Below are positions 17,993-45,700 of a stretch of DNA of 64,000 nucleotides, piece after piece. The stretch is from a virus. Location of the stretch: the IMG/VR virus record IMGVR_UViG_3300050144_000109, positions 84,451 through 148,450 of that record. One strand, 5' to 3'. Both the position numbers and the translations under genes were made by a program. Numbering within the stretch: position 1 is the stretch's first letter; every line of letters starts with the position of its first letter. The notes beneath the pieces were generated by a model. It ran no database searches and was not told the DNA's origin. It was given only the letters and a program-made list of their open reading frames with translations.

Positions 17993-18065
17993 GACGTCAG
18001 AAAAAAAGAAAGTACGTTCTGAACTATAATGGAGTTACCCACTACAAACAGAACGTACTTTCTTT
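17993..18065 (-). terminator. Hairpin with T-tract and CTGACGT tail
   Basis: AAAGAAAGTACGTTCTG/CAGAACGTACTTTCTTT stem. Confidence 0.7.
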
Positions 18066-18132: not shown

Positions 18133-19872
18133 TTAATAAACTCTAGAAGTTGCCCCAATTGTCACAGACACGGTTCCATTTTGGTTGATGGTACATCTCG
18201 TAATCGGACCACTGGTAAGAAACTCGATCATGGTGTTCCATGTGTCAGCGTCTGATTGCGTGAAGAAATCGACCCCATTGTCAAAGCCATACCAGACAAT
18301 TCCAGCATGGTAAGGATCCCCTAACAGAAGTGTGATGACTGAACGCTGCATGTAAGCTAAGCGAGTAGGTGTGGCCAGAGAAGCATAATTCGGATTCTCT
18401 GAGGTCATCTCAGTCATGTACAGTGGTTTTGTAGGAAATCCCAATTGCGTCAAGATAGATCGTAAATTACGAGTGAAGCCGTAGGCTGCCAATGGACTAG
18501 GCAAAGCATTGCCGATATTGATTGGATAGGTATGGTACCCAATATAATCCACCGCGTTGATCATTGCGTTCGAGTTGGCGCTCAAGCAAGCACGCACATA
18601 ATCCGCACCCGCAGCACTGCCTCGATTTATCACATTAATGAAAGAAGGGCCTATGATTTTTGCTGAGGAATCTACAGACCGAATAGCTTCGGCAGCCTGA
18701 ACGACCATCTGAGACAACTCGGCCGGGGTTCCTGTGAAACCGATGAATGTAGTGCGTGCACTGGCATAGTTCACAAAAGGCCCAGTGCCTACAGTTGGAT
18801 AAGGTTCGTTGTAAATTTCATAGTGAATTCCTTGCCCAGCGTAACGCAGAGCGATTTCTCGGCACGCAATATACCAGCTACCCGTTGTGTTATTTGCCAA
18901 ATCAACCGGCGGTGTGTTGATGGCGCCTACTGCTGAGTGGAGTCCTGATTGTCCATACAAAGGAATTATCATTCGCTTACCAGCATGTCTAGCTACAAAG
19001 TAGTCTAAGACGGACCAGTCCCCTGCAGTGCTCTGACGTTGAGCACTTGTGAGCGGTAACCAATTCGTCTTCTCAATGAAGTGCATCATTGCAGCTAGAT
19101 TATTGCCGGTGGGACCATCATAGTTCAGAGAACGTACAGCCCCATAGTTCACTCCTAAGGGAACAGTAGCTGTCGTAGCAGGCTGCGGCCAACGATGCCA
19201 GTGTGCCCCGAACATGGCACTGGTCAGTGTACGTGGGGCTGTTGAGTTTACCAAAGTGGTAGAGGTTCCTGGAACAACTTCTAACGATGAAGAAACAACC
19301 TTCATAATCTTGCCAGCAACATAAGTATTTTCCCAAGAAAAGAATACTACGACGCGTAAGCCATTGGTGGAATACTGGTCGTACCAGTGATTGAGAGCTT
19401 GTGCACTTTGTAAGTACTCACTTTGTGCAGCATACATCGCAGATATGCGGACGTCATTGCCCCCACTACCAGCTACCGCAGCAAGCGTTACTGAGAACTG
19501 CCCGCCTATAGAAGTCGCATATTCAGCAGGTGCCGCTACTGCAATCGTATTACTGGGGTTGGTTGGATCAGATCCGTCAATCGTGCCAATACGTACATTG
19601 AATCGGCGTTCTAGGTTCGTGGTGGCCGTTGGCTTGTCATCAGGAGTTACTCCGCCGTAGGTGCCCGACTCATAGAGCGCAGTGAATCGAGCACGCCAAT
19701 CGGTGGTAAGACCACTGAGGGGCCCTGGTGGGATATCCACATGCCCCATATATTGCAGCGCACTATCCGTAGCAGCAATGCCCGTGCTAATTCTCGAATA
19801 TAGATTGTTATTGGTTACCGAATACCCTTGGGCGACTTGCGGGGATTGTGTGGCAAGTAGAGAATGAAACAT
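18133..19872 (-). CDS. Clan GH-A glycoside hydrolase (GH39/GH5-like), putative virion-associated depolymerase
   Basis: Acid/base motif YEIYNEP, nucleophile KPLYMTE, AKIIGPS and VDYIGYHTY; extra N-terminal beta domain; directly follows a collagen gene. Confidence 0.75.
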   Translation of the reverse strand: MFHSLLATQSPQVAQGYSVTNNNLYSRISTGIAATDSALQYMGHVDIPPGPLSGLTTDWRARFTALYESGTYGGVTPDDKPTATTNLERRFNVRIGTIDGSDPTNPSNTIAVAAPAEYATSIGGQFSVTLAAVAGSGGNDVRISAMYAAQSEYLQSAQALNHWYDQYSTNGLRVVVFFSWENTYVAGKIMKVVSSSLEVVPGTSTTLVNSTAPRTLTSAMFGAHWHRWPQPATTATVPLGVNYGAVRSLNYDGPTGNNLAAMMHFIEKTNWLPLTSAQRQSTAGDWSVLDYFVARHAGKRMIIPLYGQSGLHSAVGAINTPPVDLANNTTGSWYIACREIALRYAGQGIHYEIYNEPYPTVGTGPFVNYASARTTFIGFTGTPAELSQMVVQAAEAIRSVDSSAKIIGPSFINVINRGSAAGADYVRACLSANSNAMINAVDYIGYHTYPINIGNALPSPLAAYGFTRNLRSILTQLGFPTKPLYMTEMTSENPNYASLATPTRLAYMQRSVITLLLGDPYHAGIVWYGFDNGVDFFTQSDADTWNTMIEFLTSGPITRCTINQNGTVSVTIGATSRVY

Positions 19873-19890
19873 GATTTATTTATCTTTCTA

Positions 19891-20466
19891 TTAAGCAACG
19901 GTGCGAAGAGGTCTATTGATGACGGCGCCAATTGCATTTCTAGTTACAGCAGATTGAGTAACTGTCTTTGTGCCGTTTGGTCCTACATAAGTTACCGTAT
20001 ACGCATCTGTTGATCCTGGGAACAAGTCGCTGGCGAGCGTCATACTGTAAGATCCTGCGCTGCCGTCAGGCCATTGTACCGCATAAGAAATCATGTTGCC
20101 ATTGGCATCGTAAAGAATGGGGCCGGCCACCATATTGCTCGGATCTCCAGACCATGCAATGAGGTAACTATCTCCACCCACACTAGAAGCCCCGGTAAGA
20201 CCTGCTGGTCCTTGAGGACCTGTGTCACCCTTGACACCAGTAAGACCTTGAGGGCCGGTTGCACCTACTGCACCATTGGTGCCGTTAGTTCCTGCAGGGC
20301 CTGTAAGGCCCTGTGCGCCTTGAGGTCCAGTTAAACCAGTAGGGCCCTGAGGTCCTTGTGCGCCTTGAGGGCCTGTAGGTCCGGGTGTTCCTACAAGAGT
20401 CCCAGTGACAGGGTCTACTGATAAATTGAAATTAGTGACTTCCACTAATTGAATTGTGTTTGGCAT
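19891..20466 (-). CDS. Collagen-like (Gly-X-Y) fibre/adaptor protein
   Basis: More than 20 Gly-X-Y triplets followed by a beta-rich C-terminal domain; ATG at 20466 with AAGGGA SD. Confidence 0.75.
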
Positions 20467-20527
20467 ATGGGAATCCCTTGTGGAAATGGTAGAGAATATT
20501 TGATCACAAAATAACAACTTGAATATT

Positions 20528-20594
20528 AACGTCAGAAAAGAAATAGTTAATTGACTTGTATGGCGCTAAAAACGTGTATACGAGTCAATTAACT
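20528..20594 (-). terminator. Hairpin with TTCTGACGT tail
   Basis: AGTTAATTGACT/AGTCAATTAACT stem. Confidence 0.65.
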
Positions 20595-20614
20595 GCAGAT
20601 CGAATATCAATCTT

Positions 20615-20983
20615 TTACCAATGACCACCACCACCAATTCGAATACCCAACCACATCATCCAAGCTTTCCACTTAGGAACCCCTTCTTCCACACACGCTT
20701 TGTAGAAGATGTCGTCTGCCAAGGCTCTGTATGCAACTGGATGCTTGCCATTCTTATCAACAGTATAGAGCCAATCGTGCAACGTGGCAGGAGGTCTTGC
20801 CATGTCACCAAAGAAAAGCCAAATGAAAGGCAGCCTAGGAACAGAAGCAAAATCAGTCACGAACCCAACGGGGACTGTGTATTTTTCATAATGCAAATGT
20901 GCTTTGAGTTTCCAAGAGCCTCTGTCAGAATTGGAAGTATCGCTGATGTCTTCAACAATGAGGGGTGAGAACTTAGACGACAT
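20615..20983 (-). CDS. DUF1353 family protein
   Basis: VPVGFVTDFASVPR, ATLHDWLY and ADDIFY motifs. Confidence 0.8.
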   Translation of the reverse strand: MSSKFSPLIVEDISDTSNSDRGSWKLKAHLHYEKYTVPVGFVTDFASVPRLPFIWLFFGDMARPPATLHDWLYTVDKNGKHPVAYRALADDIFYKACVEEGVPKWKAWMMWLGIRIGGGGHW

Positions 20984-21245
20984 GATTAGTCACTTCTGCA
21001 GATGCTGTTGGTTTCTTAGAGAAGATACCCAACATATTGAATAAACTAACGCCAGTAGAAATAACGCCGTCAATAGCCCCTACGGTTGGGTTAAGAACAC
21101 TCACGACAGTCATTGCAGCTTTGAGTTTGTCAACGCTACTCATCTTAACGGGCGACTGCGAAGAAATGTTCTCTACGAACTGTACAGCCGTCACTGCGGC
21201 TGAAAGCTTGTCAGAAGCCAGATTGAGTTTGTCTAGGAACGACAT
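20973..21245 (-). CDS. Small hypothetical protein of the type found beside DUF1353 and lysis genes
   Basis: 90 aa, AGGAG SD, amphipathic/hydrophobic C-terminus VSLFNMLGIFSKK. Confidence 0.6.
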   Translation of the reverse strand: MSFLDKLNLASDKLSAAVTAVQFVENISSQSPVKMSSVDKLKAAMTVVSVLNPTVGAIDGVISTGVSLFNMLGIFSKKPTASAEVTNHVV

Positions 21246-21293
21246 GAAACTTACTCCTACTTAGTTAAAGGATGGGGTAAAATAAATATTCAT

Positions 21294-21337
21294 AGCATAA
21301 ATATCAACAGGATTTGACGCCTGTTGATATTTATGTG
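21294..21337 (-). terminator. Hairpin with TTTATG on both flanks
   Basis: CATAAATATCAACAGG/CCTGTTGATATTTATG stem. Confidence 0.7.
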
Positions 21338-21356
21338 GTTGTTGGTTTAATCTTTA

Positions 21357-22591
21357 TTAACTGGGAGATTTGATATACTTGCTCGGTTTGACTCTCCATG
21401 ACCAATCTAAATACTGCGCCATATATGCTGCAATAGCTGTCTTTGCTGCGCCAACGTAGTGCGTGCCATCGCCCATGATGGCACCGTACAGATCTTTACC
21501 CGTAGCTGGATCCGTTACAACCGTAGCAATGTCAGCCACCTGTGTTCCGTACGTAGCGATTAACCATGTGTTGTATTGTTTTCTTAGCGCTTCTTTGACT
21601 GCATCAGTAGATGCTACACTAAATGGAGTAATGGTTGTGTAGTAGCGATAGGTGAACCCATCTGCAATTGCTTTTGCAGTCATGCTTTGTGTGCTAGCGC
21701 ACATCTGCGCAAAGGTTCTTCCTTGACCAATGTCATTAATGCCGCCCTGAATGATTACAGCGTTACATCTTGGCTTCAAAGTTGTGATGTCCGTAGACCA
21801 ACGGGTATCCATATCAGCAAGCGTCTGCCCACCAATCGCCCGATTGAATAAGCTCAGTGAGAGTTCTGAGCCAAGAACTGTCGTAATTTCTCTGTTAGCA
21901 ACAACGTTGAAATCGTACATTCGATCATTAAAACCACTGGAACCAGCGAAAGTGGAGTCCCCAATGACTGCTACACCATCTAAGTAATTGGAGTTAACCG
22001 GCTCAACCATGAACCCTCCAATGTACGGTGCAGAGCCAGTGGCCATAATACCACCCCAATTATTATTGGTACTAATTAGGGGCAGACCACCGCCATTCGT
22101 AGTGCCTGGCGCAGTTGCCGGGGTTGTACCAACATCTAGAGTTGTAGTAGAAAAAGCGGTTGCCAAATACCAAACTCTAGTTAACTCACCAGCCTTGCAC
22201 CAAATAGCACCATGTCCATTAGAGGCCGCAGCAGGGCAAGATTTCTGATTCCACCAAAAGTCAACGGGGGACCAAACATAAAGACTGACCAAATATTTTT
22301 TACCAACAACATAGGGTGTTAAACCTGATGCAGTGATGTTTGTTGTGATCCCACCATAGACAGAACTGAAAGATACTTCGCTGAGTGTAATAATCCGTCC
22401 ATCTACAAACGCTTGTTTTGTAAGGCCCGTTTTGTACTGCCAATAGCAGCAATGTAATAAGCCCATGCCAAGTCTTCTGAATGAACTGCAATGTTCATTG
22501 AAACTGGAAGGGTTGTTCTAACTAAAGAGATACCTTGATTTGCTACTTGAGCCTGGTATAACGTAGAAAGATCATTCGTTGGGAGTCCCAT
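21357..22591 (-). pseudogene. SGNH/GDSL esterase (tailspike-like), split by a -1 frameshift near 22430 (ORFs 22403..22591 and 21357..22466)
   Basis: SGNH blocks IGDST, AIGG, GGINDI and DGTH. One extra A in ACAAAACGG joins the frames (...IGSTK-TGLTKQ...) into a protein of about 411 aa starting right after the collagen gene. Confidence 0.7.
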
Positions 22592-22594
22592 GAT

Positions 22595-23224
22595 TTATCC
22601 TTGATATTGTGCTTGCGGATACAGATCCCAACACCACACAGGAGCAGCAACTCCAGTAGGTTGGAACCAGCGAACTTTAGCGCCAGCGTTGATACCGTTC
22701 GATAAATATCGAACCTCTCCAACTAAGACGCCTTGAATTGAATTGCTTATCGCCTGCGAATCAGTGATGGTGTCTGAGATCAGCCCTGATTGAAAGGTGG
22801 CCTTTTCAATAACAGTACCTGAAGTGAATGCAGTTTGCATTCCAGCGAGTGTTGCAAGAGCATTCGTACCGTTAGTCCCTACAGGACCGGTAGCCCCAGT
22901 ATCGCCCTTAGGACCGGTAGCGCCAGTAGCGCCTACTGCACCAGGGGTGCCATTCGTGCCTGCTGGCCCTGGTGCACCTGTATCGCCTTTGAGTCCTTGA
23001 ATGCCTTGGGGTCCCGTGGGTCCTACAGGTCCTTGAATGCCTTGGGGTCCTTGAGGACCCGTGCCTCCGACACCAGTCAAGCCTGTGATCTGAGACGCTG
23101 GCAAGCGCAGGTCAGAGAGCTTGAGCAAGTAAGGAGGCTTGCCAGTACGGACAGCGTAAATCTTATCCGGTTGGATCAGACTAACTCGGCCCCGGTGGGC
23201 TCCGGGGGGGGGGGGGGTTGCCAC
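22595..23224 (-). CDS. Collagen-like fibre protein with a C14 tract after the start codon; paralog of the 27710..29377 N-terminus
   Basis: Gly-X-Y repeats; [36 protein letters not shown] identical to the paralog; GTG start with AAGGA SD. Confidence 0.8.
23204..23217. repeat. G14/C14 homopolymer
   Basis: 14 consecutive G on the plus strand, covering codons 3-7 of the collagen gene. Confidence 0.9.
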
Positions 23225-23273
23225 TGATGAAAAGTCCTTTAAATGAAGTTATGTATTGTGTCAAACAATATAA

Positions 23274-23335
23274 AAACATAAAACCCTCTCTGTACACCAC
23301 TCCTGATATTCACGGGAGTGGTGTACAGAGAGGGT
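23274..23335 (-). terminator. Long hairpin with TTTTATG tail
   Basis: 21-bp stem ACCCTCTCTGTACACCACTCC/GGAGTGGTGTACAGAGAGGGT. Confidence 0.75.
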
Positions 23336-23367
23336 AAATTCGAATTAACTTTTCTTCACAACATGAT

Positions 23368-23790
23368 TCATGTATGATCGATTATTTTCCATTTCTTTCC
23401 ACAAGGGGCGAGTCCTTCTTCATCAATGATGAAGTCTAGCCAAGGCGCATTGTCGTCGGCTTGCCTGACATAACACCAGCCTTTCATGTAACTTTCTGTG
23501 CAAATGCCAAGCACACCATCGACTTCGACGATGTCACCCACTTGAGGGCATCGAATAGGTTTACTTAACCCAAACGTTTTCCTGAGTAAAGCGATTGTTT
23601 CTTCATCTTGAGTTTGCTTGCACTTTTCATCGAGACCTGAGCTCCTTTCGATAATGGGGACGTCTCTCCATTCTTCAGAATGATCATCAAAATTCTTACG
23701 AATGTGCCAGAGCTGTTGTAGAACTATTTTGTTACTCGCATGAACTTGTCTGAGTTGATTTGTCAAAGTCTCTTCATTTGCCATGTACAT
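23368..23790 (-). CDS. Hypothetical protein
   Basis: 140 aa, AGGA SD. Confidence 0.6.
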   Translation of the reverse strand: MYMANEETLTNQLRQVHASNKIVLQQLWHIRKNFDDHSEEWRDVPIIERSSGLDEKCKQTQDEETIALLRKTFGLSKPIRCPQVGDIVEVDGVLGICTESYMKGWCYVRQADDNAPWLDFIIDEEGLAPCGKKWKIIDHT

Positions 23791-23806
23791 GATAATTCCT
23801 AACGAC

Positions 23807-24121
23807 TTAAAAAGAGACTGATTTCTTCAGGTCTTCACGTGTCTCAGCCGCCAAGAGCTTCATCTGCGCATGCATGAGTTTCTTAGCTTGCCTTCTTTCT
23901 GTACACCAAACAACATCGTCTTCACAGGAATACCAGTGCGACTTCATCTGTCGTGCAGCGTTGATACTTGAAACCTCAGAAACGACTGCATACTGAGACT
24001 GCATAACTGTGTTCAACAAGCGCACCACACTGACACGTTTACGAAGAATGTACTTGACACCTCCAGGTCGGATTTCATCAAAGTTCACTTGAAGAGTGTG
24101 GAGGCGTTTATTATTTTTCAT
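23807..24121 (-). CDS. Hypothetical basic protein
   Basis: 104 aa, ATGA overlap. Confidence 0.6.
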   Translation of the reverse strand: MKNNKRLHTLQVNFDEIRPGGVKYILRKRVSVVRLLNTVMQSQYAVVSEVSSINAARQMKSHWYSCEDDVVWCTERRQAKKLMHAQMKLLAAETREDLKKSVSF

Positions 24122-24417
24122 TTTGTTTGGTCTTTCTTATAAGCAGCCAAAGAATCCTTGTAGATCTTATTGAGTAGCTTCTGTGCAATACGTTTAGCAA
24201 CTCGTTTGTCTGAGAATCCGTGGGGGTGTACTTCCGGCCCAAACTCATTCCACCTGCTACTCATTTTCTTTTTGATGTTGTAGGAGCGCATCCCTTTTTC
24301 TATGTAGTAATACCCATCGTCGTTTGACATTACTCGGACACGTACAAAGATGTTGTACGGGAAGTCCGGCACTGCAATACTCAGGTATTGCTTTTGAAAC
24401 GTATGAATGTTTTTCAC
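24118..24417 (-). CDS. Hypothetical basic protein
   Basis: 99 aa, GTG start with GGAG SD. Confidence 0.6.
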   Translation of the reverse strand: MKNIHTFQKQYLSIAVPDFPYNIFVRVRVMSNDDGYYYIEKGMRSYNIKKKMSSRWNEFGPEVHPHGFSDKRVAKRIAQKLLNKIYKDSLAAYKKDQTK

Positions 24418-24480
24418 TTAGTTACTCCAAAGAAGAAAAAAAGAAACCGGGTGAGGGTTTCTTTCTCGACCATTGATCCC

Positions 24481-24579
24481 TTAGAATCCCAGGCCGATGA
24501 TAACACCGATGAGTCCAAAGACTACGACGATGAGTAAGACTTCCCAACGCTTGGGCTGATGATTGAGGAACGAATTCAT
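24481..24579 (-). CDS. Small single-pass membrane protein (32 aa), absent from the ORF track
   Basis: AGGAG SD; MNSFLNHQPKRWEVLLIVVVFGLIGVIIGLGF; fills a gap in the operon. Confidence 0.65.
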   Translation of the reverse strand: MNSFLNHQPKRWEVLLIVVVFGLIGVIIGLGF

Positions 24580-24589
24580 TTGTGACTCC

Positions 24590-24904
24590 TTACTTAAGAA
24601 CTTGCCGAGCTGTGGCTCGATCCGAAAAGTAACCAGCTACTCTATTGGCAAATGTGAGACGTGCAATTGCTTCATCGCGCTCGCGTGAGGTGAACGTAAA
24701 TTTGGGGCCGCCGAGAATCTCTTCGCTCAACTTCTGAATCGAGCAAGGGTCAGCAAAATCCCACTCTTCAGCAGCATCATACATCTCCTCCGGCAGCTTA
24801 TCTGCTTCGAGTTCAGGAGAATGGGCGAGCCATTCTTCGACATGACTTTGATGATCGTGGTTTACACAATTGATATGTGCCGGGATACGTGCGTCCATTT
24901 TCAT
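24590..24904 (-). CDS. Hypothetical protein
   Basis: 104 aa, AAGGA SD. Confidence 0.6.
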   Translation of the reverse strand: MKMDARIPAHINCVNHDHQSHVEEWLAHSPELEADKLPEEMYDAAEEWDFADPCSIQKLSEEILGGPKFTFTSRERDEAIARLTFANRVAGYFSDRATARQVLK

Positions 24905-24993
24905 TTCCTTCTGCTCTTTTGAGCGCTGATTAAATCAAAGTACCGACGACTACCCACTGCTTGGCTGGCAATGGGTAGAGGGTCGAGACTCTT

Positions 24994-25257
24994 TTACTCA
25001 GCTGGGAAGACGTCCTTCTCTCCGTTCAGGATGCGCAGAGCTAGTGTTTTGGCCTTCTCCAATTGGACTGGGTCCTGGTGATCGGCGTCTGCCACCGATC
25101 CTTTTTTGGGGATCCAGTAGCTACCGTCTTCGATCACAGAGATTCTCCCCCAAGGTCCGGAGAAAGAGATTCCTATGAGAGTTCCTCCTTCAAGTTTACC
25201 GACTTGGTAGTACGCGTGCTTCTTGGCCGATTGAACCAGTTGTTGATTCGTCTTCAT
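24994..25257 (-). CDS. Hypothetical protein, first gene after an early promoter
   Basis: ATG at 25257 with AAGGAG SD. Confidence 0.65.
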   Translation of the reverse strand: MKTNQQLVQSAKKHAYYQVGKLEGGTLIGISFSGPWGRISVIEDGSYWIPKKGSVADADHQDPVQLEKAKTLALRILNGEKDVFPAE

Positions 25258-25331
25258 GATAAAGCTCCTTGTGCTTTGCACAGTGGTTGAAAAGAGGTTT
25301 AGAAACTTGATGCAGTTTCCTATTCACATTG

Positions 25332-25358
25332 GTTATATGTGACTGTAGAAATTTGGAA
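25332..25358 (-). promoter_or_regulatory. Putative early promoter, 27-nt motif
   Basis: Minus strand TTCCAAATTTCTACAGTCACATATAAC. Confidence 0.68.
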
Positions 25359-25420
25359 TGTGATTTATTAGTTTCTCATACTAGTTTGTTACTTTTATAA
25401 ATTAATGGAGGTCAAGGTCT

Positions 25421-25475
25421 AACGCCAGAAAAGAGCTGTACTCCTTTGATGCTTTTATAGCCCAAAGGAGTACAG
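25421..25475 (-). terminator. Hairpin with TTTTCTGGCGT tail
   Basis: CTGTACTCCTTTG/CAAAGGAGTACAG stem. Confidence 0.65.
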
Positions 25476-25480
25476 ACTGC

Positions 25481-25669
25481 TCACTTAATTCCCAAAGCTT
25501 CTCTCAATTCCTTCAATACTTCTTGGATAGTACTCTCTGCCAAACAGAGCTCCGCTGTCGTATTGTCAAACTTGAGCTGGTCCTGTACATATGGGAGAAC
25601 ATCATCTTCCAACTGTCCTACCAACTTTTTAGCAAGGTCAGTGGAAATGGCTGTTTTACCTTTAAACAT
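25481..25669 (-). CDS. Small helical hypothetical protein
   Basis: 62 aa, between the OmpA gene and a terminator. Confidence 0.5.
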   Translation of the reverse strand: MFKGKTAISTDLAKKLVGQLEDDVLPYVQDQLKFDNTTAELCLAESTIQEVLKELREALGIK

Positions 25670-25689
25670 ACTGTATCGATCTTGTAGAC

Positions 25690-26682
25690 TTACTTCACGT
25701 TCACAACTTCAGTGGTCTCTTGTGTAGAGATTTGCAGAGTGACTCTGCGGTTACGGGTGCGACCTTCAGCAGTTGCATTCGTGTCCGCAGGCTTGTGGTA
25801 GCCAGACCCCTTCACATTTCCTACACCGAACCCAAGACTTTTGAGCTCAGCCGCCACCTCATTAGCGCGCCGCAGTGACAATTCCATGTTGTACTTGTCA
25901 CTGCCTCGGTTGTCCGTGTGTCCCTCTACAGAGCTCACGCTATCCTTGGTCTTGCCAAACTTTGACATAGCGTCCATTAGTGCAACGCGACCAGTTCCAG
26001 TGAGTGCATGTTTCCCAGTAGAGAAGAAGACATCAGAAGCCAAATCCACAGACTTGGTAGTCGTCTTTGTTTCCTTGTCTTTTCCAGGAACCACCACTTC
26101 TCTGACCGGGCCAGGTACTTCTACTTTCTTTTCTACCGTTTTCACTTCTGTAGGAGGCACTGTTTTTGATTCAGCACATTCCTTATAGGTCAGGTCTTTG
26201 AAGTTTGCATTGAGATACTGTTCATACGTCATAGAAGCACCCTCAGGCGCTCTGTACGCATCTTCAGGCTTGATCTTGTATGTGTCAGAAACAAACTTGT
26301 CTAATAGACGTTTGACTGTGTTGTACTGGCACAGTGCAGCAAAGCGGTCTATCGTCTTTTGGAGCGCACATTCCTTATTGAAGTCATGCACTGGCTTGCT
26401 CCAGGAGATGAAGTTCCAACCTCCTGCGTAAGACTCAGTACCATGTAGAATACAATTGCTCTCAGAAGACAAACCTGCTTGTACGGTGGGAGGGAAAAGA
26501 ACGCTGATTTGTTTGGAGTTGCTGGTATTGCCGCCAGCATTAAGCGCTACACCTTGGTTACTGGCGTCAGACGTAGAGGTCTGGTCTACAGTGGCGGCTG
26601 CTCCACTCGGGGTAGCAGTCTGTGCTTGTACAGAGATTACGAACGTGAATGCAGTGATGAAAGAAAATATTTTGATTTTCAT
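25690..26682 (-). CDS. Secreted protein with C-terminal OmpA-like peptidoglycan-binding domain
   Basis: Signal peptide (VQA-Q); VEGHTDNRGSDKYNMELSLRRA and NATAEGRTRNRRV; Cys-containing N-terminal domain. Confidence 0.85.
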   Translation of the reverse strand: MKIKIFSFITAFTFVISVQAQTATPSGAAATVDQTSTSDASNQGVALNAGGNTSNSKQISVLFPPTVQAGLSSESNCILHGTESYAGGWNFISWSKPVHDFNKECALQKTIDRFAALCQYNTVKRLLDKFVSDTYKIKPEDAYRAPEGASMTYEQYLNANFKDLTYKECAESKTVPPTEVKTVEKKVEVPGPVREVVVPGKDKETKTTTKSVDLASDVFFSTGKHALTGTGRVALMDAMSKFGKTKDSVSSVEGHTDNRGSDKYNMELSLRRANEVAAELKSLGFGVGNVKGSGYHKPADTNATAEGRTRNRRVTLQISTQETTEVVNVK

Positions 26683-26716
26683 GATTCATAGCTCCTGGTA
26701 TTTCTTGGGTGTTACT

Positions 26717-27450
26717 TCAGCGAGGATCAGAACCATCAAACCAGATGGAGGTTGTGTTACTTGTACTCGTGCTAGCTTTGACGCCGTCCACGCTCATGGG
26801 TATAGCCGGAGTTGCACTGTTGAAGAGTGCTTGCACAGACGACCAAGACCTGGACGTGTTCTCAGTAACGGTGGCTTTGAGATTGCTGTTGAAGTACTCT
26901 GACGAATTGGTAGTTGACCAAACACGGTCTACCGTAGCGAACCCTTTGGCAATGGAAGTGTTCCCAATGTTGATTCCTACGCCTGTGTTGATAGGTGTAA
27001 AGATGTTGGCGTACATACCGCTGTTCTTGTCGAACATTCCGCCATCAATGTTGCCACCACCATTGAGAACTTGCCCTGGCCCTGTATAGTTGTTTCCACC
27101 TTGTGTGCCGTAAGTACCTTTGACAGTGTTGGAAGCCCAACCAGTGGCTGCTCCTGTGGAGGTATTCCAAGCTTGTGCCATGTAGTTAGAACCTCCACTC
27201 ATGTCGATGTTGAGCTTACCCGCTAAGGGTGTGTTCGTGAATGTAAAATTGACATCATTCACATTAGCGAATACATTTCCTTTTCCTGAGGAGAAAGACT
27301 CTGCAATACCAATCCCAATGTCTTGGCAGAGGTGGAGGCGTCTGATTTGATGTAGACTGTGTTACCTGTAAGACCCAGGTAACCTGACTGTTGCGCCATG
27401 ACGTTGGTGGAGATAATAACAGCGAGTAAAAGTGTAGAACGGTAATGCAT
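26717..27450 (-). pseudogene. Secreted Gly/Asn/Ser/Thr-rich beta protein, apparently split by a -1 frameshift near 27320 (ORFs 27259..27450 and 26717..27262)
   Basis: Signal peptide only in the upstream fragment; the downstream frame is open about 33 codons before its GTG and reads GIGIAESFSSGKGNVFANV. Confidence 0.55.
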
Positions 27451-27554
27451 GGATGAAAACTTCCTCTTTGGTTTAGTTAGAAAATGCCAACATTCATGAA
27501 AGTCAATTAAATTGTTAGCAAATAGATTGGTTGTTTTTATTACATTTAACTTTA

Positions 27555-27596
27555 GGCATCAGAAGGAGCAGGGGAATGTTCCCCTGCTCCTATGAC
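27555..27596 (-). terminator. Hairpin terminator
   Basis: AGGAGCAGGGGAA/TTCCCCTGCTCCT perfect stem; tails TTCTGATG (minus) and TATGAC (plus). Confidence 0.7.
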
Positions 27597-27709
27597 ATTT
27601 CTTTTTTATTTTAGATCACAGTTCTACAGCACGATTCAATTGCCACAAATTAAAACACCTGAGCTAGCTCTAACGCTGTCATGGAATTTCAATACTTACT
27701 GGCAGAAGA

Positions 27710-29377
27710 TCAGTAAATTATGGCAGCGGCCAGCATCGCAGCAGTCGGCACCGCGACCCTGCTCGCATCCGCCCCGGTGTCGTTCAGGTGAATGCCGTCA
27801 CCCGTGTACCCGGCTTTCCAATATCCGCCCGTGCCCGCCGTCTGTTGACCAGAGACGAGGATCAGCGGTGTTTCGTTGCTATTGACTTCAGATTGAATGC
27901 ATGGGTCCGACAGAAAAACTTTCACTCCTCGGCAGAATGTGGATACCCATGCGGTCAAGTCCGTCGCGCGCAGCCAGTTATTGATTGCCACGCGCGTCGT
28001 TTCCCAGGAACGAACCGTCTGGGCTGAAGCAGAAGTCCACGCTCCGGTGGTGCGAGGAAGGATCGTGGCTACGGAAAAATTCCGACATGCCGACATCCGT
28101 ATAATCCACTTCTTCAGCTCGTCTTGATACCCGGCAAGCGTCGTAATGGTGAGAGCCTCCAAGTCGTTTGTCGCGACGTGCAGAAAAATACCATCGACGT
28201 ATCGCGCCACGATTCCGCAGTACACGTCATAACGGTTTGTGTTGAAGAGGGCAGATCCGTCGATTCCATTTACAGAATACCCACACCCTCCCGCAGTATC
28301 GAGGGCGCGAGCAATATACCCGACGAGGCCAGTAGTTCCATAGCCGTTTGAGATACTATCGCCCATGATCCCAAAAACAGGAGTTGGGTTACGCATGATT
28401 CCGGTGATTAGTGATGGACCATAGCACCGAGCGCCCCCAGTGTTTGCACCAAGCGTATCCGAAAGTGTCGTTGTGGCGTCTGCGCCGGTCGTCACTGTGG
28501 TGCCGGTGACAAGGTCTGTAGTTTTTCCATTGCTCGGGAACGTATATGTGTACGGCCATTTGTTACCGCTGGCCGCAGCCTTATGAACTCTCAAAAAATA
28601 TGTTGTTCCCGCAAGTAGAGGATTAGATTGCGGCAACGACTCGATATAGCCGAATTCTCGAAGAACTGTCCCGCTCTTCGTCGAACCAGTAATTGGGTTC
28701 TCGGTGTACGACGGAAAACTGACCTGATTGAGTTGGCTCGAAGCTTCCAACGCAGCTCGGATCTTCAAATCTCCGGCAACACCTGGGAAGCCGGACGATA
28801 CAATGGTACCGTTGACAAATACATACGAGATGTCGCTGCAGTCAGCAAACACGGTAAATCCAATTCGGTCGGTGCTGCTGACTTGAGTCGTGCCGTTTGA
28901 CTGCGCTCCACCCTGAGGGCGGAAGCCACCGAGGCTTGAGACAATGCGACGGCGAGGTATAGTCCCTGCCACGCTCGATTGAAAAGCAACTTGTTGAGCA
29001 GCCGTGCCGGCAGCGAAAGCTGCCTGCATTGTCGACAGGTCACTGGGTCCTGTAGGTCCCACAGGTCCAGCAACACCCTGGATGCCTTGGACGCCCGCAG
29101 GACCAGTGAGGCCGATCGGACCTTGGGGACCTGTGGGACCCGTTGCACCACCGGCACCCTGAGCACCTGTGGCTCCCGTAGGGCCTTGTGGTCCAGCAGG
29201 TCCTACAGGGCCCTGCACGCCTTGCGGTCCTTGAGGACCGGTACCACTGACCCCAGTCAATCCGGTGATCTGTGACGCAGGCAAGCGCAGATCACTGAGC
29301 TTCAGCAAGTAGGGTGGCTTGCCTGTCCTGACGGCATAAATCTTGTCCGGTTGAATGATAGGGAGAGTCGTTGCCAT
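27710..29377 (-). CDS. Collagen-like fibre fused to an SGNH/GDSL esterase (putative tailspike/deacetylase)
   Basis: ATG at 29377 with AAGGA SD; more than 20 Gly-X-Y triplets; SGNH blocks MGDSI, GIDG, ATNDL and DGIHL. Confidence 0.8.
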
Positions 29378-39799: not shown

Positions 39800-42700
39800 A
39801 TGTTTGGATTTGGAAAGAAAGCCAGAGTAGAGAATGAGTCGATTGACAGTGAGTTCAATCTGGATGACGGCTTGGACATGGGGGGGTTTGATTTTGATGC
39901 TGACCCCATGAAAGACGACAGAAAGCCAGTGACGAAGGTGCTGGATGGTGCACTGACTGGTTTCAAGGCTGGGGTGTCGGATACCAGCTTTTTAAAGAAG
40001 ACCGTCAAGGACATCTTGCCTGAAGGGTATGGCAAGACGTTAGATCTGCATGACAAAGTCAATGGCAGCATTCGTGACCTATACGATGAAACCGCCAAGG
40101 AAGTCAAACCAGCGATCAAAGAGTTCAAGAAAATCAGTGCAAGACTGATTCCTTCTGACTCTAAATTCATCCCGACTCCTGTGCAAGACTTGCTGCAGAA
40201 GTGGAGAGATGAGAAAGAAGAGGAGAAGCGGGACTCTTCTTTGGATGAGAATACACAAAAAGAACAGTTCTTGTCTGTGCAGATGGCAGACATCTTTCAA
40301 GCGCAGTCAGAAGACAAGCAAAGCGAGAAGAAAGAGAAAGACGCCAAAGACAACATCCAACAAGGCATAGACTTAGAGCGTCACCGGGACTTGCTGGGCA
40401 TTGTTTCTAACATGGATCAATCCGTCTCTCGGATTGACCAGTATGGCCGCTCAGTGGGTTTGAACTACCAGAAGAAGACGTTGGAGTTGATGTACCGTCA
40501 GCTCTTTGCTTTGCAAGACTTGGTGAAGCTGGGTGAGAAGGGGTTTGGCGTGATGGCCAACGAACTCCCTGCCATCAAGAAGAACACTGCATTGCCTGAG
40601 TTTGTCAAGCAAACCAATACCGAGTTCTTGAAAGAATACAACAAGAAGAAACTGGTCGAGACGATTGGTCGTAACTTGTTTGGCACGGGTGCTGAGTATC
40701 TGGACAAAGTGCTTGGGAACTTCAATAAGAATCTGAAAGCCAAGTTCAAGGAAGGCATTGGTCAGTTCAAAGACACGCTCACCCAAGCTGGCGAGATGCA
40801 CGACAGCATGAAAGACATGGGGGACATGCCTGGCATGGACAAAGCCACCATGGGTGGCAGCATGGTTGGTGACGCTGCTGCCAAAGGCATTGGCGGCAAG
40901 GCTGCGAAGTGGGTACAGAGCAACGTACTGAACAAGAGCGAGCGCGTCAACAAGCTGGGCTCTAAGTTACTCAACGCCAGTGTGGATGCGCCACGCGCCA
41001 TCAATGAATTCAGAGAGAAGAATGCAAACAGCTATTCAGATACTCTTTGGGGAAAAGCAAAGTCTGCTGCAGCCAGTCTGATCAGTCCGTTTGAGGAGAG
41101 CAAAAGCATTGAAGGGCAAGATGCTACCAAGCTAGGAAGTCCTGGTGTATTCTCCAAGAGAACAGACAGGTCCATCAATGAAGTCATTCCTGGATTCCTG
41201 GCTAGAATCTTGAGAGAGGTTCAAGTCTTCAGAACTGGAGATGAAAGCATTGAACTGCAAGCCTTTGACCATGTGAAGAACACTTTCACAGACAAGGGCA
41301 AGCTAGAGAAAAGAATTCAAGACTCTGTGATTGATTCTGGCGCTAAAGAGAACATGCACGGGCAGCTTGATGAGATGATCAAGCATACCGAAGGGCAGGA
41401 TCTCTCTCCAGAAGCCAAGAAAGCACTGAAGAAACGCTTGACCATGACCAGCGCTTCTGGCAAGCGCATGAGTCAGGAGAACTTTGATCAAGAAGACCAC
41501 TACGAAGGTGAGGGTGCTGCAGAAGCTGCAGCACACATGAAGAAGTACTTTGAAAAGAACAAAGACAACCAGGCGCACCAAACTGCAATCAAGCGCAGGC
41601 ACGACAACCTAGGTTCTTACGTCACCAACACCATGGGACAAGTAGAGACCAACGCTGAGCTTGGCTACACTGAGGAGTTGCAAAAGGCTGGCTTCTTGGA
41701 GAAAGACGGTAGAACAATTTCCAGAGACAAGATTCTGGAACATTACTTAAACCGCGAAGAGAAGAAAAAAGAAAATGGTGAGGGTGGATCTGATCCGTCA
41801 AATGAGCCAGGCAATCCCCCTGGTCCTGTGCCGCCTGGTCCAACGCCTCCGATTCCAGGAGCTGTTCCCCCGATCAATCCACATGGTGGTCCTGGTCCAG
41901 GAGGCCCCACACCGCCTCCGAACGTTGACTCTGGCTTAGGCGGTGGAGCTCCCAACCCTGTATCGGATACTTCAGCCGCTGGTGGCGCAGATCCGACGGT
42001 TGGACCACCAAAGCCAAAGACCAAGCTCCAACGTCTGGCGGGTTCTATTTCAACAGACATCGGTAACTTGCTAGAAGGTGCTTATAACAAAGGCTCGGAT
42101 GCTGTCAAGGGAACCATCGAAGTTTTGGACAGCAAAGACCCAAAAGAAAAACTCATTGAAAAGCTAGTCCCTAAGAAGTACAGAAGACTCTACAAAGACG
42201 GTTTACTTGATCGACACATGGTCGTTCAAGAACTGAAGAACGCGGCTAAGAAAGGTGGCCGTGATCTACAAGTCAAGATTGATGAAATCAAACAGCTCAA
42301 CAAGGACGGTGCCCTCAACATTGAGAATCTGGCACTGATCGCGCAAGGTAAGTCAGTCAAATCTGATTCAACACAGCCTGCTGAGCAGAATACTGAAACA
42401 GCTTCGATTGATGCTGGTGCTGACAAACCCAAAGCCTTCGCTAAAGGTGGCGTGTTTTCCAACTCCGTGCTGAACAAGCCGACTCCGTTTAGCTTTGAGC
42501 AAGGCGGCAAACCACACGCTGCAGTCGCTGGTGAAGCTGGCCCTGAAGCGGTCATGCCACTCACTGCACAAGGTGTGCGTGCAGTCGATGAGAAAGGGAA
42601 CGTACAAGCACACTTGCCACTGACGAGAGATAAGAACGGTATCCTTTCAGTTGAGCATGCCAACTCTATCAAGGATACTGGAAAGAAAGTTCTAGACGCT

Positions 42701-45700
42701 GTGGGTGGCTTCTTCACCAACACACGCGAAGCACTCCAGGACATCATTGCGGATAAAGCACACGAGCTGAAGAGTAAGCCTGTAGAGGCCAAGTCTTCTG
42801 CTAAGCCTTCTGCGCTGCCTGCAACTCCAAAGCCAGCCATGCGCAAGGACATGTCGGACAACGACAAGCTACTGTCCAAGTTGGATGAGTTGATCGATAC
42901 AGTCAAGAGTGCTTGGTCGGGTTCCTCTGTTGGCTCTACGGTAGGCAGTGTCGCACAGTCCGCAACTGCTTTGGCTGGAAGAGCCAGGAATGCTGCAACT
43001 GAGTTCATGGGGAGTCCGAAAGCGCAAGTGATGAAGACCCGTGCAACCGAAGGCTTCTCTGTAGCACAAAAGAAAGTAGAAGAACTCAAAGCATCACCTA
43101 AGCTGACTGCGTTACAGACAGCCGCTACCAAGAAGTTAGAGCAAGCTAAGAAAGTAGTCTCACAAACGAAGCTCCCCAGCATGGAGGAGATGGGTGCGCA
43201 TGTAAGCAGTGCAAAGAAGAGCGCCACTGGCTTTGCAGAGCAGTTGAAGACGCACGCTATTCTAGGCGCTGGGAAGCTTCAACAGCATTTGGAGAATATC
43301 CAGAAGACTCCTTCTGACCCTACTACACCAGTCAGTGTATTGGACCAGCTTAAAGCACATGCAAGTTCTGGCGTTCAAGCAGTACAACAAAAGATCCAAC
43401 AGAGTCAAGGCAATCTGGATCCAAAGACCAAAGAAAAGATCAGCGGTCTGCTGTCTGGAGCTGCTTCCAAAGCCAGCGCCGTAAAGAAGCAGCTGCATGC
43501 AGCTACGACTAAAGTCAAAGAACAAACACAAGGGTTCTTAGAGCAGCAGCCTGCACTGGCTAAGCACATTGAAGCTGGTCGTGAGACGGTGGGTAAGTTG
43601 CTAGGCACTGCACAAGCAACGACTCCGCTAGAGCCGGTAGTTACTCCCCAAGCAGCTGCCAGTAATGCCACTAGCATGGGTAAGAAAGATACGCTTAAAG
43701 CGCGTTTAAATGCTGCACATGCAGATTTATCTGGCCATCTGGAAAGTGTGTTAACACCAGCACCCACATTGTCTACAAAGATGGACGATGTGAAACAAAG
43801 CAGTGGCGGCGTATTCCAGATGCTGCGCAACAAGCTGGACAAGAAGTCGACCCAAAATGTTCAAGTAACGCAAACCAATGAGAAGCCCACGCCTGAAGAA
43901 GCGAAAGAGCATTCAAAGGTCCTGCAATACGCACAGACTCTGATTACCAAGAAACAAACCACGACTGAAGAAGTCAAGACCATCCTCAACTCACTGGTAG
44001 AGAAGAAAGCACTGACGCTGGAGAACTTTAAGAAAGTGCTGAAGGGCGAAGAAGTAGTCTCTAACAAGGTTGAAGAAGTTCAGTCCGCTACTCAAGACAA
44101 GAAACTCACACTGAAAGAACAACTCAAGGCAGGTGCGCAGTCTCTGCGAGTGTTCGGTGAAGACCAACTCATTAAAACCAAGCAAGCCTATACACAACAC
44201 CGCCAAGCCTCTTTAGACAAGGCTGAAGAAAATAAGCCGCCTGCACAAAACGACAAGCTGAAGAAAACCATTGCTGCTGCACAGGCGTACGCCCCTACAC
44301 TCAAGGGTAATGTTCAAGACAAGTTGGAGTCCGGCAAGAAGAACGTTCTGGGTTTCATGAACGTAGTCGCTGAGCAAGCCAAGAAACTGGCTGAACAAGT
44401 CCATGAGAAGGGATCTAAAGCTGTCGAGACTGGGAAAGCATTTGTCAATGAGAAACTGGAGAGTCGCAAGAGCAAAGAGTCTGGAAGTGCTTTCAAAGAA
44501 CGCGATGAAATCACTGGTGATCTTGAAACCGTACTGAGGAAGAACTTACACGGGATTCAGATCACGCTGGACAAGTCAGAAGACCACTTGTCTAAGATCT
44601 TGGAAGCCATCCGCGAAGGTGGCGGTGGTGGCAATGGAAAAGCCAAGGGTTCTTGGTGGTCATTTGGTAAGAAGGGTAATGAGGAAAAGGCGAACCATGG
44701 AAGTGGTGTGTCTGGTCTGGTAGGTAGAGCTGCATCGAGCGCTACTTCTCTGGCAGGCAAAGGCCTAGGCTTGGCAGCACGCACCTTCGGCAAGACTGCC
44801 ATGATGAATGTCAGTGCGATCAAGTGGGCGGGTAAGAAACTGATGCCTGGAGGCCCTAAAGAGCCTAAAGACATTTATGTTGAAGGTGAGTCTAGACCGC
44901 GCCTGTACGCTGCAAGACTTAAAGAGGGTATGTACATTAAGAAGATCAGCAAGAAACCCCTGACCGATATCAAGGACTTGAACGAACCAATCATTGACCA
45001 AGAAGGCAATGAGCTACTGACAGAAGAAGACTTGAAGAAGGTCTACGTCAAGAGCATCGGTGGGAAAGCCAAGAAGTTATTAGGCGGCATTGGGAAAGTC
45101 GGTGGAGCCGTTGGTCGTGGTCTGGGCTCTTATGCTGGTCTGGCCAAGAAAATCATTGGCTTTGAAGTCGACATGGTGCGTGGCGGTCTGGGACTGGCTA
45201 AGAAAGCAGTGACTGGCGCTTACGGCCTCATGAATGGTCCTGCAGATGTCTACACACTAGGAATTGAAGAACCCGTCATGGTCGCTACTGTGATGAAGCA
45301 TGGCGGTTACGCTTCCAAGCTCACAGGCAAAGTCATCAAGAAGCCAACAGACATCGACGGTCCAGTCGTAGACAAAGAGGGCAACACGGTCCTGACCACG
45401 GATCAATTGAGAAAAGGTATTTTCAACGCAAAGGGAAAGAAGTTCAAAACACCTTTGGGTAAGCTACTTGGTGTGGCTGGTAAAGTCGCAGGCACTGTTT
45501 GGGGCGTACAGAAAGCAGCTTGGGGACTGACCAAGCAAATTGGTAAGAAGATGCTAGGTGGTCTGAAAGGACTGACTGGTGGGCTCTTTGATGGCTTGTC
45601 TGTAGAGATCAATGGTGCCAAAAGCGTCTCTGTACTCACTGAGATCAAAGAGATGCTCAAAACGTACTTTAGTGGAAAAGGAAAAAATGAGGATAAAAAC

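Follow-up and report, generated by a model that had tools for sequence, protein, structure and literature searches.

The final 64 kb of an assembly consisting of one 148,450-bp contig (IMG/VR record IMGVR_UViG_3300050144_000109, positions 84,451 to 148,450; this 64,000-nucleotide stretch is referred to as the window) encode three proteins with collagen-like Gly-X-Y stalks, here called A, B and C, each fused to or closely followed by a predicted carbohydrate-active enzyme. The source appears from its gene content to be an uncultured, phiKZ-like jumbo phage. We consider it fairly probable that these genes belong to a set of paralogs specifying trimeric collagen-stalk fibres of that phage, with enzymatic tips and a common peptide as their mount. 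Through the shared N-terminal peptide each fibre would most likely attach to a single common site on the virion; the Gly-X-Y stalk would serve as spacer, and the enzyme presented at the distal end would be carbohydrate-active, modifying or cutting polysaccharide on the host surface during adsorption. In A, and in a further paralog designated P0006, the enzyme is fused to the stalk, whereas B and C have a separate downstream enzyme, which probably docks on a small C-terminal domain of the stalk. For A, P0006 and the neighbour of B the predicted tip is an SGNH domain of the O-acetyl-esterase type, and for the neighbour of C a GH39-like retaining glycosidase.

The three stalks proposed in the initial annotation are borne out by uninterrupted runs of 22, 23 and 23 triplets in A, B and C, and the Pfam Collagen family (PF01391, curated cut-off 27.2 bits) scores above its cut-off in all three genes (28.2, 38.4 and 52.8 bits). 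The description of A as a collagen stalk fused to an SGNH esterase likewise holds, since the coordinates of the open reading frame (ORF), the Pfam matches and the GDS/ND/DxxH blocks agree. These blocks (GDSIS at residue 339, TND at 403 and DGIH at 527) are invariant in family alignments; block III reads ATND, with Ala in place of Gly. The C-terminal half of A matches Lipase_GDSL_2 with an expectation value (E) of 4.9e-6 and 27.6 bits, below the 32.9-bit cut-off. An 18-residue motif that follows the collagen run is common to A (MQAAF..AFQS) and B (MQTAF..TFQS), as had been noted. PRRRI, 7 residues beyond AFQS, marks the start of the enzyme module in A, and in B the motif is followed by a tail of about 60 amino acids (aa).

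The N-terminal peptide is the feature on which the proposed common mount depends. All 36 residues are identical between A and B, and 18 of the 108 nucleotides (nt) differ without changing a residue, so that the initial report of protein identity despite synonymous divergence is upheld. The proportion of synonymous differences (pS) is ~0.54 and the estimated synonymous divergence per site (dS) ~0.9; over the next 60 collagen codons the nonsynonymous divergence (dN) is 0.39. Recent gene conversion as the source of the identity is ruled out by the 18 nucleotide differences, all of them synonymous, and the peptide appears to be under strong purifying selection. When the 43-aa N-terminus was run by phmmer against 1.84 billion representatives, only four sequences matched: A, B in a 201-aa form, P0006 and a marginal repeat protein that is unrelated (E 7.9e-4); no phiKZ protein was among them. 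A metagenome scan with the N-terminal peptide found nothing. In P0012, the B stalk of a 148,371-bp sister contig, two Ile-to-Phe changes lie inside the peptide (LFQPDKFYAV), so that, barring sequencing errors, the peptide is not completely invariant in the population.

P0006 extends the set. It is a protein of 576 aa, called from an internal GTG, with 26 identical peptide residues, followed by 7 Gly-X-Y triplets, a tail-fibre repeat match, two repeated beta domains and an SGNH domain. The match, to Pfam 'Phage tail fiber repeats' (E 4.6e-6, 26.7 bits), falls just under the 27-bit cut-off. P0006 was looked for on the 148-kb contig and is absent from it; its longest contig is 240,441 bp, a figure also given for A, B and the glycoside hydrolase of module C. 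It therefore seems likely that all four lie on one contig of that length, in which case the phage carries the peptide in three of at least four stalk genes. The protein records place the peptide in at least three paralogs, A, B and P0006.

Module B combines a stalk gene with an esterase gene in two pieces. The initial annotation had placed a separate SGNH gene 3 nt after the B stalk; the spacing and the SGNH domain stand, and the intact gene does not. A 1-nt frameshift in an A4 run at 22430-22433 splits the esterase, so that a 62-aa ORF ends early and the rest lies in the -1 frame as a 369-aa ORF. Intact homologs (P0015-P0017, 412-416 aa) begin MGLPVND and are continuous, and the alignment with them places the break at the A4 run. 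Upstream of the esterase start, a Shine-Dalgarno-like AAGGA lies inside the end of the stalk gene. The 369-aa ORF matches Lipase_GDSL_2 above the cut-off (E 1.2e-11) and carries the blocks GDST (169), GGIND (241) and DGTH (333), which are invariant in family alignments. An AlphaFold2 (AF2) model of the family member P0015, with a predicted local distance difference test score (pLDDT) of 80, has an N-terminal stretch of about 30 aa that is disordered or helical, then a beta-sandwich and an SGNH domain. Foldseek aligns this model with many SGNH structures at E 1e-8 to 1e-11, the best matches being two-domain carbohydrate acetyl-esterases such as 7tog and CE2 enzymes. The model thus points to a CE2-like SGNH esterase with a beta-sandwich plus SGNH layout as the B enzyme.

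The B stalk gene itself begins GTG GCA A, followed by a tract of 14 C (23185-23224). On this contig the start encodes 18 residues that on four other contigs are replaced by VATTPPPLIQ, giving proteins of 209 and 201 aa, respectively; the two forms differ by an in-frame 8-codon indel and a C/A change after the start codon. The stretch after the start codon is therefore either polymorphic or hard to assemble.

In module C the stalk is followed by a 579-aa protein, the N-terminal ~215 aa of which are beta-rich. Its C-terminal part was first described as a clan GH-A glycoside hydrolase, an assignment that is accepted here on the evidence of profiles, relatives and predicted folds, with GH39 as a candidate family. 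The 579-aa protein has no Pfam match of its own, GH39 included, and four of its five relatives (~48% identity) match Pfam GH39, with a best E of 6.4e-7. The family profile matches the GH39 xylosidase 4ekj at E 5e-4, and this alignment pairs YNEP with WNEP and MTEM with FTEW. The catalytic motifs are NEP (E356) and TE (E488), and both Glu residues are invariant in the family. Among the Foldseek matches listed for a model of the protein, nearly all are clan GH-A barrels. The C-terminal domain of the C stalk is beta-rich, about 95 aa long, and in an Atlas structure search resembles small stand-alone viral proteins, with template modelling (TM) scores of 0.83-0.87. Atlas candidates below 0.9 are taken as leads only; these are RHS/YD-like for the C stalk C-terminus and CBM_4_9-like for the N-terminus of the hydrolase.

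In both split modules the stalk and enzyme genes share a reading frame. The B pair is separated by one stop (TAA ATC ATG) and the C pair by three; read-through fusing the C stalk to the hydrolase is ruled out by these three in-frame stops. The shared frame may be due to chance or may be left over from a fission or fusion of the genes.

That the tips are exchangeable units with definable boundaries is shown by their recurrence on other carriers, which supports modular exchange. The enzyme module of A recurs at 33-34% identity on P0034 and P0035, both outside the collagen proteins; one carrier is 876 aa long, with an extended non-collagen region at its N-terminus, and the other is a 496-aa protein bearing a signal peptide. 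Conversely, an esterase homolog at locus L006 is fused to collagen. The most informative case is L011, an IMG/VR contig with lambda-like terminase, gpW and portal genes, which encodes an esterase that is 60% identical to the B esterase and starts MGMPVND. An ORF of 162 aa precedes this esterase; over its final 40 residues the ORF shares 45% identity with the end of the B stalk (E 2e-13), and the junction is the same as in B: stop, ATC, ATG (TGA ATC ATG in L011). The conservation of this cassette on an unrelated backbone indicates that stalk tip and esterase travel together onto different carriers, and the pattern gives indirect support to a functional pairing of stalk and enzyme. An N-terminal peptide MG[LM]PxND is present in both cases with a visible B-stalk-like partner, whereas L010, a more distant esterase homolog, has neither the peptide nor such a partner. 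The neighbour of the L010 esterase is a long ORF that looks tailspike-like, in an apparent structural module. On L011 the carrier and esterase cassette (L011:4016-5449) directly follows the portal, where lambda has its protease and scaffold genes.

A more specific form of the proposal, which we hold to be doubtful, is that the split modules are true two-component receptor-binding proteins (RBPs). The 40-aa C-terminus of the stalk would dock the separate esterase non-covalently, and by analogy the glycosidase, via a conserved peptide at the N-terminus of the enzyme; tip, junction and enzyme would move as a cassette between unrelated phage lineages, and the one peptide conserved at the stalk N-termini would allow a jumbo phage of the nucleus-forming type to offer at least four different enzymes on a single virion site.

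Several points weigh against collagen-stalk fibres with docked or fused enzymes and a common mount. C lacks the shared N-terminal peptide, and the expectation that all modules have it in common fails there, since its central part is missing; in their C-terminal domains, the B and C stalks are only marginally similar (E 0.05). The two stand-alone enzymes are laid out like ordinary free carbohydrate-active enzymes, and the model of the hydrolase is of low confidence (pLDDT 46) and suited to supporting use only. The 'tail fiber' labels of PHROG matches were rejected as evidence of location, as these matches are largely confined to the Gly-X-Y tract, and the neighbours of A (prohead protease) and of the L011 cassette (portal) fit the head or neck as well as the tail. 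The identical 369-aa ORF of the B esterase is recorded on 7 contigs with the frameshift on all 7, so that the frameshift looks fixed in the population and no one-off error, and no stimulatory RNA structure was found after the frameshift site (z = +1.05). A strong programmed -1 frameshift signal is ruled out, as no structure follows the site, and the B esterase of this lineage would be either inactive or made only at a low level. Of the plug-in system first envisaged, exchangeable tips in fused and split forms thus remain, without the common docking peptide in C and without an intact enzyme in B; nor do the modules form one array, as unrelated genes intervene between A and B (~4.4 kb) and between B and C.

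The fixed frameshift gives rise to one competing account, to which we assign a little less than an even chance: module B is a decaying cassette, its esterase a pseudogene, and the C14 tract and the indel at the stalk start reflect relaxed or variable expression and not function. The frameshift cuts the conserved N-terminal 50 aa from the rest of the esterase on every one of the 7 contigs, nothing downstream of the A4 site would stimulate frameshifting, the internal ATG has only a weak ribosome-binding site, and the stalk exists as 201- and 209-aa variants across assemblies. Decay sits less easily with the remaining 357 codons, which are open with all catalytic blocks intact, and the A AAA CGG context could allow low-level -1 slippage. 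It is also conceivable, if unlikely, that the split forms make no complexes at all: the two stalks would be simple adhesin or decoration fibres ending in their own C-terminal knobs, and the enzymes would be soluble, released at lysis and merely co-transcribed. Such enzymes could loosen exopolysaccharide or destroy receptors on debris; both are self-sufficient, with a beta-sandwich plus catalytic domain typical of free carbohydrate esterases and GH39 enzymes, the distant esterase homologs L010, L003 and L012 have other neighbours, and the C-terminal domain of the C stalk has its likeness to stand-alone viral proteins. The tight spacing of 3 nt and 18 nt, with AAGGA inside the end of the B stalk gene, argues for pairing, as does the joint conservation of the last 40 aa, the junction and the esterase on an unrelated backbone. 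MG[LM]PxND is moreover kept where a B-stalk-like partner exists and missing in the partnerless L010, and the fused proteins A, P0006 and L006 demonstrate that this type of enzyme is carried on collagen stalks.

Enzymatic collagen-stalk fibres need not be tail-borne, and their placement on the capsid or neck, as head fibres or whiskers with the peptide bound to a capsid or collar protein, is a serious alternative even though we judge it the less likely location by some distance. The prohead protease and virion-protein genes are immediately upstream of gene A, the L011 cassette comes right after the portal in a head module, P0006 also matches PHROGs labelled 'neck protein' and 'minor head protein', and the collagen-like SPP1 gp12 is a capsid-binding trimer (PMC7602432). 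Set against this are the tail-fibre repeat match of P0006 and the fact that described enzymatic RBPs are mostly tail-borne (PMC5380687, PMC6872550). The sole match of A among cultured phages (INPHARED) is a single weak one, to a 'minor tail protein' of a Gordonia phage. Gene position in any case carries little weight, as gene order is scrambled in this phage group and the sheath and tube genes lie ~10 kb away. The role of the peptide can also be read differently, because collagen helices need a flanking trimerisation domain: the peptide could be the trimerisation or registration nucleus of the helix and not a docking element, and it does abut the first Gly-X-Y triplets, themselves conserved as GTGPQGPQG. 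This seems to us improbable. In co-expressed paralogs, divergence of a self-association domain would be expected, as this would avoid mixed trimers, whereas the A and B peptides are identical as protein with synonymous sites near saturation; C has an equally long collagen tract without the peptide, and the second conserved motif, MQxAF..FQS, after the collagen could fill the role.

The swappable-tip design of RBPs is already known, and what is described here is a variation of it on collagen stalks, not a new kind of system. To our knowledge, phiKZ-like jumbo phages are not known for arrays of enzymatic RBPs. Phage G7C, in which gp63.1 works with the adaptor gp66, has carrier and enzyme as two interacting proteins. 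In Mu, P2 and the T-even phages, the fibre gene's 3' end moves as a mosaic unit with the gene that follows, which encodes an assembly chaperone; the esterase and the 40-aa B-type stalk end that precedes it in L011 resemble such a unit, with the difference that in those phages the partner is a small chaperone and here an enzyme of ~411 aa. Ouyang and colleagues are said to have described, in 2022, hyperbranched multi-depolymerase fibres of jumbo Klebsiella phages. These phages too have many enzymatic RBPs, but belong to another lineage, use beta-helix depolymerases and branch by protein-protein adaptors. The streptococcal prophage hyaluronidase HylP contains a Gly-X-Y collagen-like stretch. Like the fibres proposed here it is a trimeric phage enzyme, but it is a single lyase with a short collagen insert and no paralogous family with a shared peptide and different enzymes. 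The hyaluronidase is listed in PMC5380687.

An N-terminal anchor with an exchangeable enzymatic domain is an established design (PMC6872550, PMC8262889). In the KP32/KP34-type depolymerase RBPs of Klebsiella phages there are, as here, several genes per genome with a conserved N-terminal module and horizontally exchanged C-terminal domains (PMC6872550, PMC8262889). There the counterpart of the spacer is a T7 gp17-like or T4 gp10-like domain and the tips are beta-helix lyases or hydrolases, whereas the present proteins have a predicted collagen triple helix as spacer, predicted SGNH esterases and a GH-A barrel as tips, a phiKZ-like phage as host genome and a presumed attachment to the virion. 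SGNH-domain tail fibres include experimentally active esterases and are common among prophage RBPs (PMC13123978); those of a Klebsiella prophage (PMC13123978) and an Acinetobacter phage (PMC11058221) have a distal SGNH domain with predicted or shown deacetylation, as proposed here. The present set differs in that A and the B esterase are without relatives in 50,697 deposited phage genomes, bar the one weak minor-tail match, and in the CE2-like beta-sandwich plus SGNH layout predicted for the B enzyme. SPP1 gp12 is also a collagen-like trimer, which binds the particle via its non-collagen end, but it is a single gene without an enzyme (PMC7602432). Among phiKZ-like phages, fMGyn-Pae01 has a collagen-like domain in a fibre protein; unlike the proteins described here, that protein has no similarity to depolymerases, and the phage uses the flagellum (PMC11877940).

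If the proposal is correct, the logic of an anchor with swappable enzymes has been rebuilt on collagen stalks in a phiKZ-like phage. The 36-aa peptide would then be a compact candidate handle with which foreign tips could be mounted on a jumbo phage, and the junction of stalk tip and esterase would offer a natural pair, fused and split, in which to study the recruitment of enzymes by phage fibres. Candidate tools against exopolysaccharides of the environmental host are the GH39-like enzyme and the CE2-like esterase. Deposited phage genomes yielded no relative of either stand-alone enzyme, and A has the one weak match already mentioned.

The module genes, all of which lie on the minus strand, are listed in Table 1 with their surroundings. 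Each module is followed by a hairpin, as originally described; the third (18007-18063) is then followed by a T-run.

Table 1. Features of the three stalk modules and of the genes between B and C (positions in the window)
Feature	Position	Strand	Remarks
Gene A	27710..29377	-	555 aa
A, shared N-terminal peptide	29249-29356	-	
A, collagen run	29042-29239	-	22 uninterrupted Gly-X-Y triplets
A, MQAAF..AFQS motif	28976-29029	-	18 residues
A, enzyme module	~28957 to 27713	-	beta-rich region and SGNH esterase
Hairpin after A	27564..27591	-	13 bp, perfect; ~120 nt downstream of A stop; no T-run after
Hairpin before B	23283..23335	-	21 bp, perfect; between upstream gene (stop 23368) and B stalk start
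B stalk gene	22595..23224	-	209 aa; GTG start, then C14 tract
B, shared peptide	23069-23176	-	
B, collagen run	22862-23068	-	23 triplets
B, MQTAF..TFQS motif	22787-22840	-	18 residues
B, C-terminal domain	22601-22720	-	40 aa; conserved with protein upstream of L011 esterase
B esterase, 5' part	22403..22591	-	62-aa ORF (MGLPTND...); 3 nt after B stalk stop, same frame
B esterase, main part	21357..22466	-	369-aa ORF; -1 frame; beta-sandwich and SGNH domain
Hairpin after B	21296..21335	-	16 bp, perfect; 21 nt after B esterase stop
Hydrophobic ORF	20973-21245	-	90 aa; long hydrophobic stretch
DUF1353 protein	20615-20983	-	122 aa; PHROG 1158 'tail assembly chaperone'
C stalk gene	19891..20466	-	191 aa; short divergent N-terminus without shared peptide
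C, collagen run	20185-20391	-	23 triplets
Glycoside hydrolase	18133..19872	-	579 aa; starts 18 nt after C stalk stop
Hairpin after C	18001..18063	-	15 bp, 27-nt loop, then T6; terminator-like; ~70 nt after hydrolase stop

The interval between A and B holds small genes and a secreted pair. Between B and C, the 90-aa hydrophobic ORF overlaps the start of the DUF1353 gene. DUF1353 is the family of TtaP, a demonstrated phospholipase A2 (PMC11525133), and the two genes could be an envelope-active pair between two fibre modules.

The affiliation of the phage is suggested by the phiKZ gp29-type sheath, tail tube, gp28-like vertex protein and DUF7193 protein, all encoded in the window together with the prohead protease and virion proteins of PHROGs 3014, 2926 and 3841. 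The content of the window resembles that of FLC9/RP12-type jumbo phages. One 486-aa protein has counterparts in Burkholderia, Ralstonia and Xanthomonas jumbo phages at 21-26% identity, and more distant ones in PhiPA3 and 201phi2-1. The 148,450-bp contig is probably partial, since a longest contig of 240,441 bp is on record for proteins of this phage. In FLC9 the prohead protease is followed by small genes and no collagen genes are annotated at that place, which indicates that the collagen modules occupy a variable stretch of the genome. A megablast search with the region gave no match in phage genomes, nor did tblastn of the B esterase and of the hydrolase against the deposited phage genomes. 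Scans of genome contigs returned only distant SGNH cores with the esterase alignment and nothing with the hydrolase alignment; scans of viral contigs with the hydrolase, A, P0006, the hydrolase alignment and the C-terminus of the C stalk found nothing close.

Two observations concern other parts of the window. The final ~100 nt of the contig (63800-64000) are abruptly GC-rich, unlike the rest of the genome, and may be an assembly artefact or a chimeric end. On the plus strand, a giant ORF of 3680 aa with strong AT skew occupies positions 39800-50842; its sole Pfam match is a weak one to VanY (M15 peptidase) near residue 3000, and it may encode a giant virion-associated cell-wall hydrolase.

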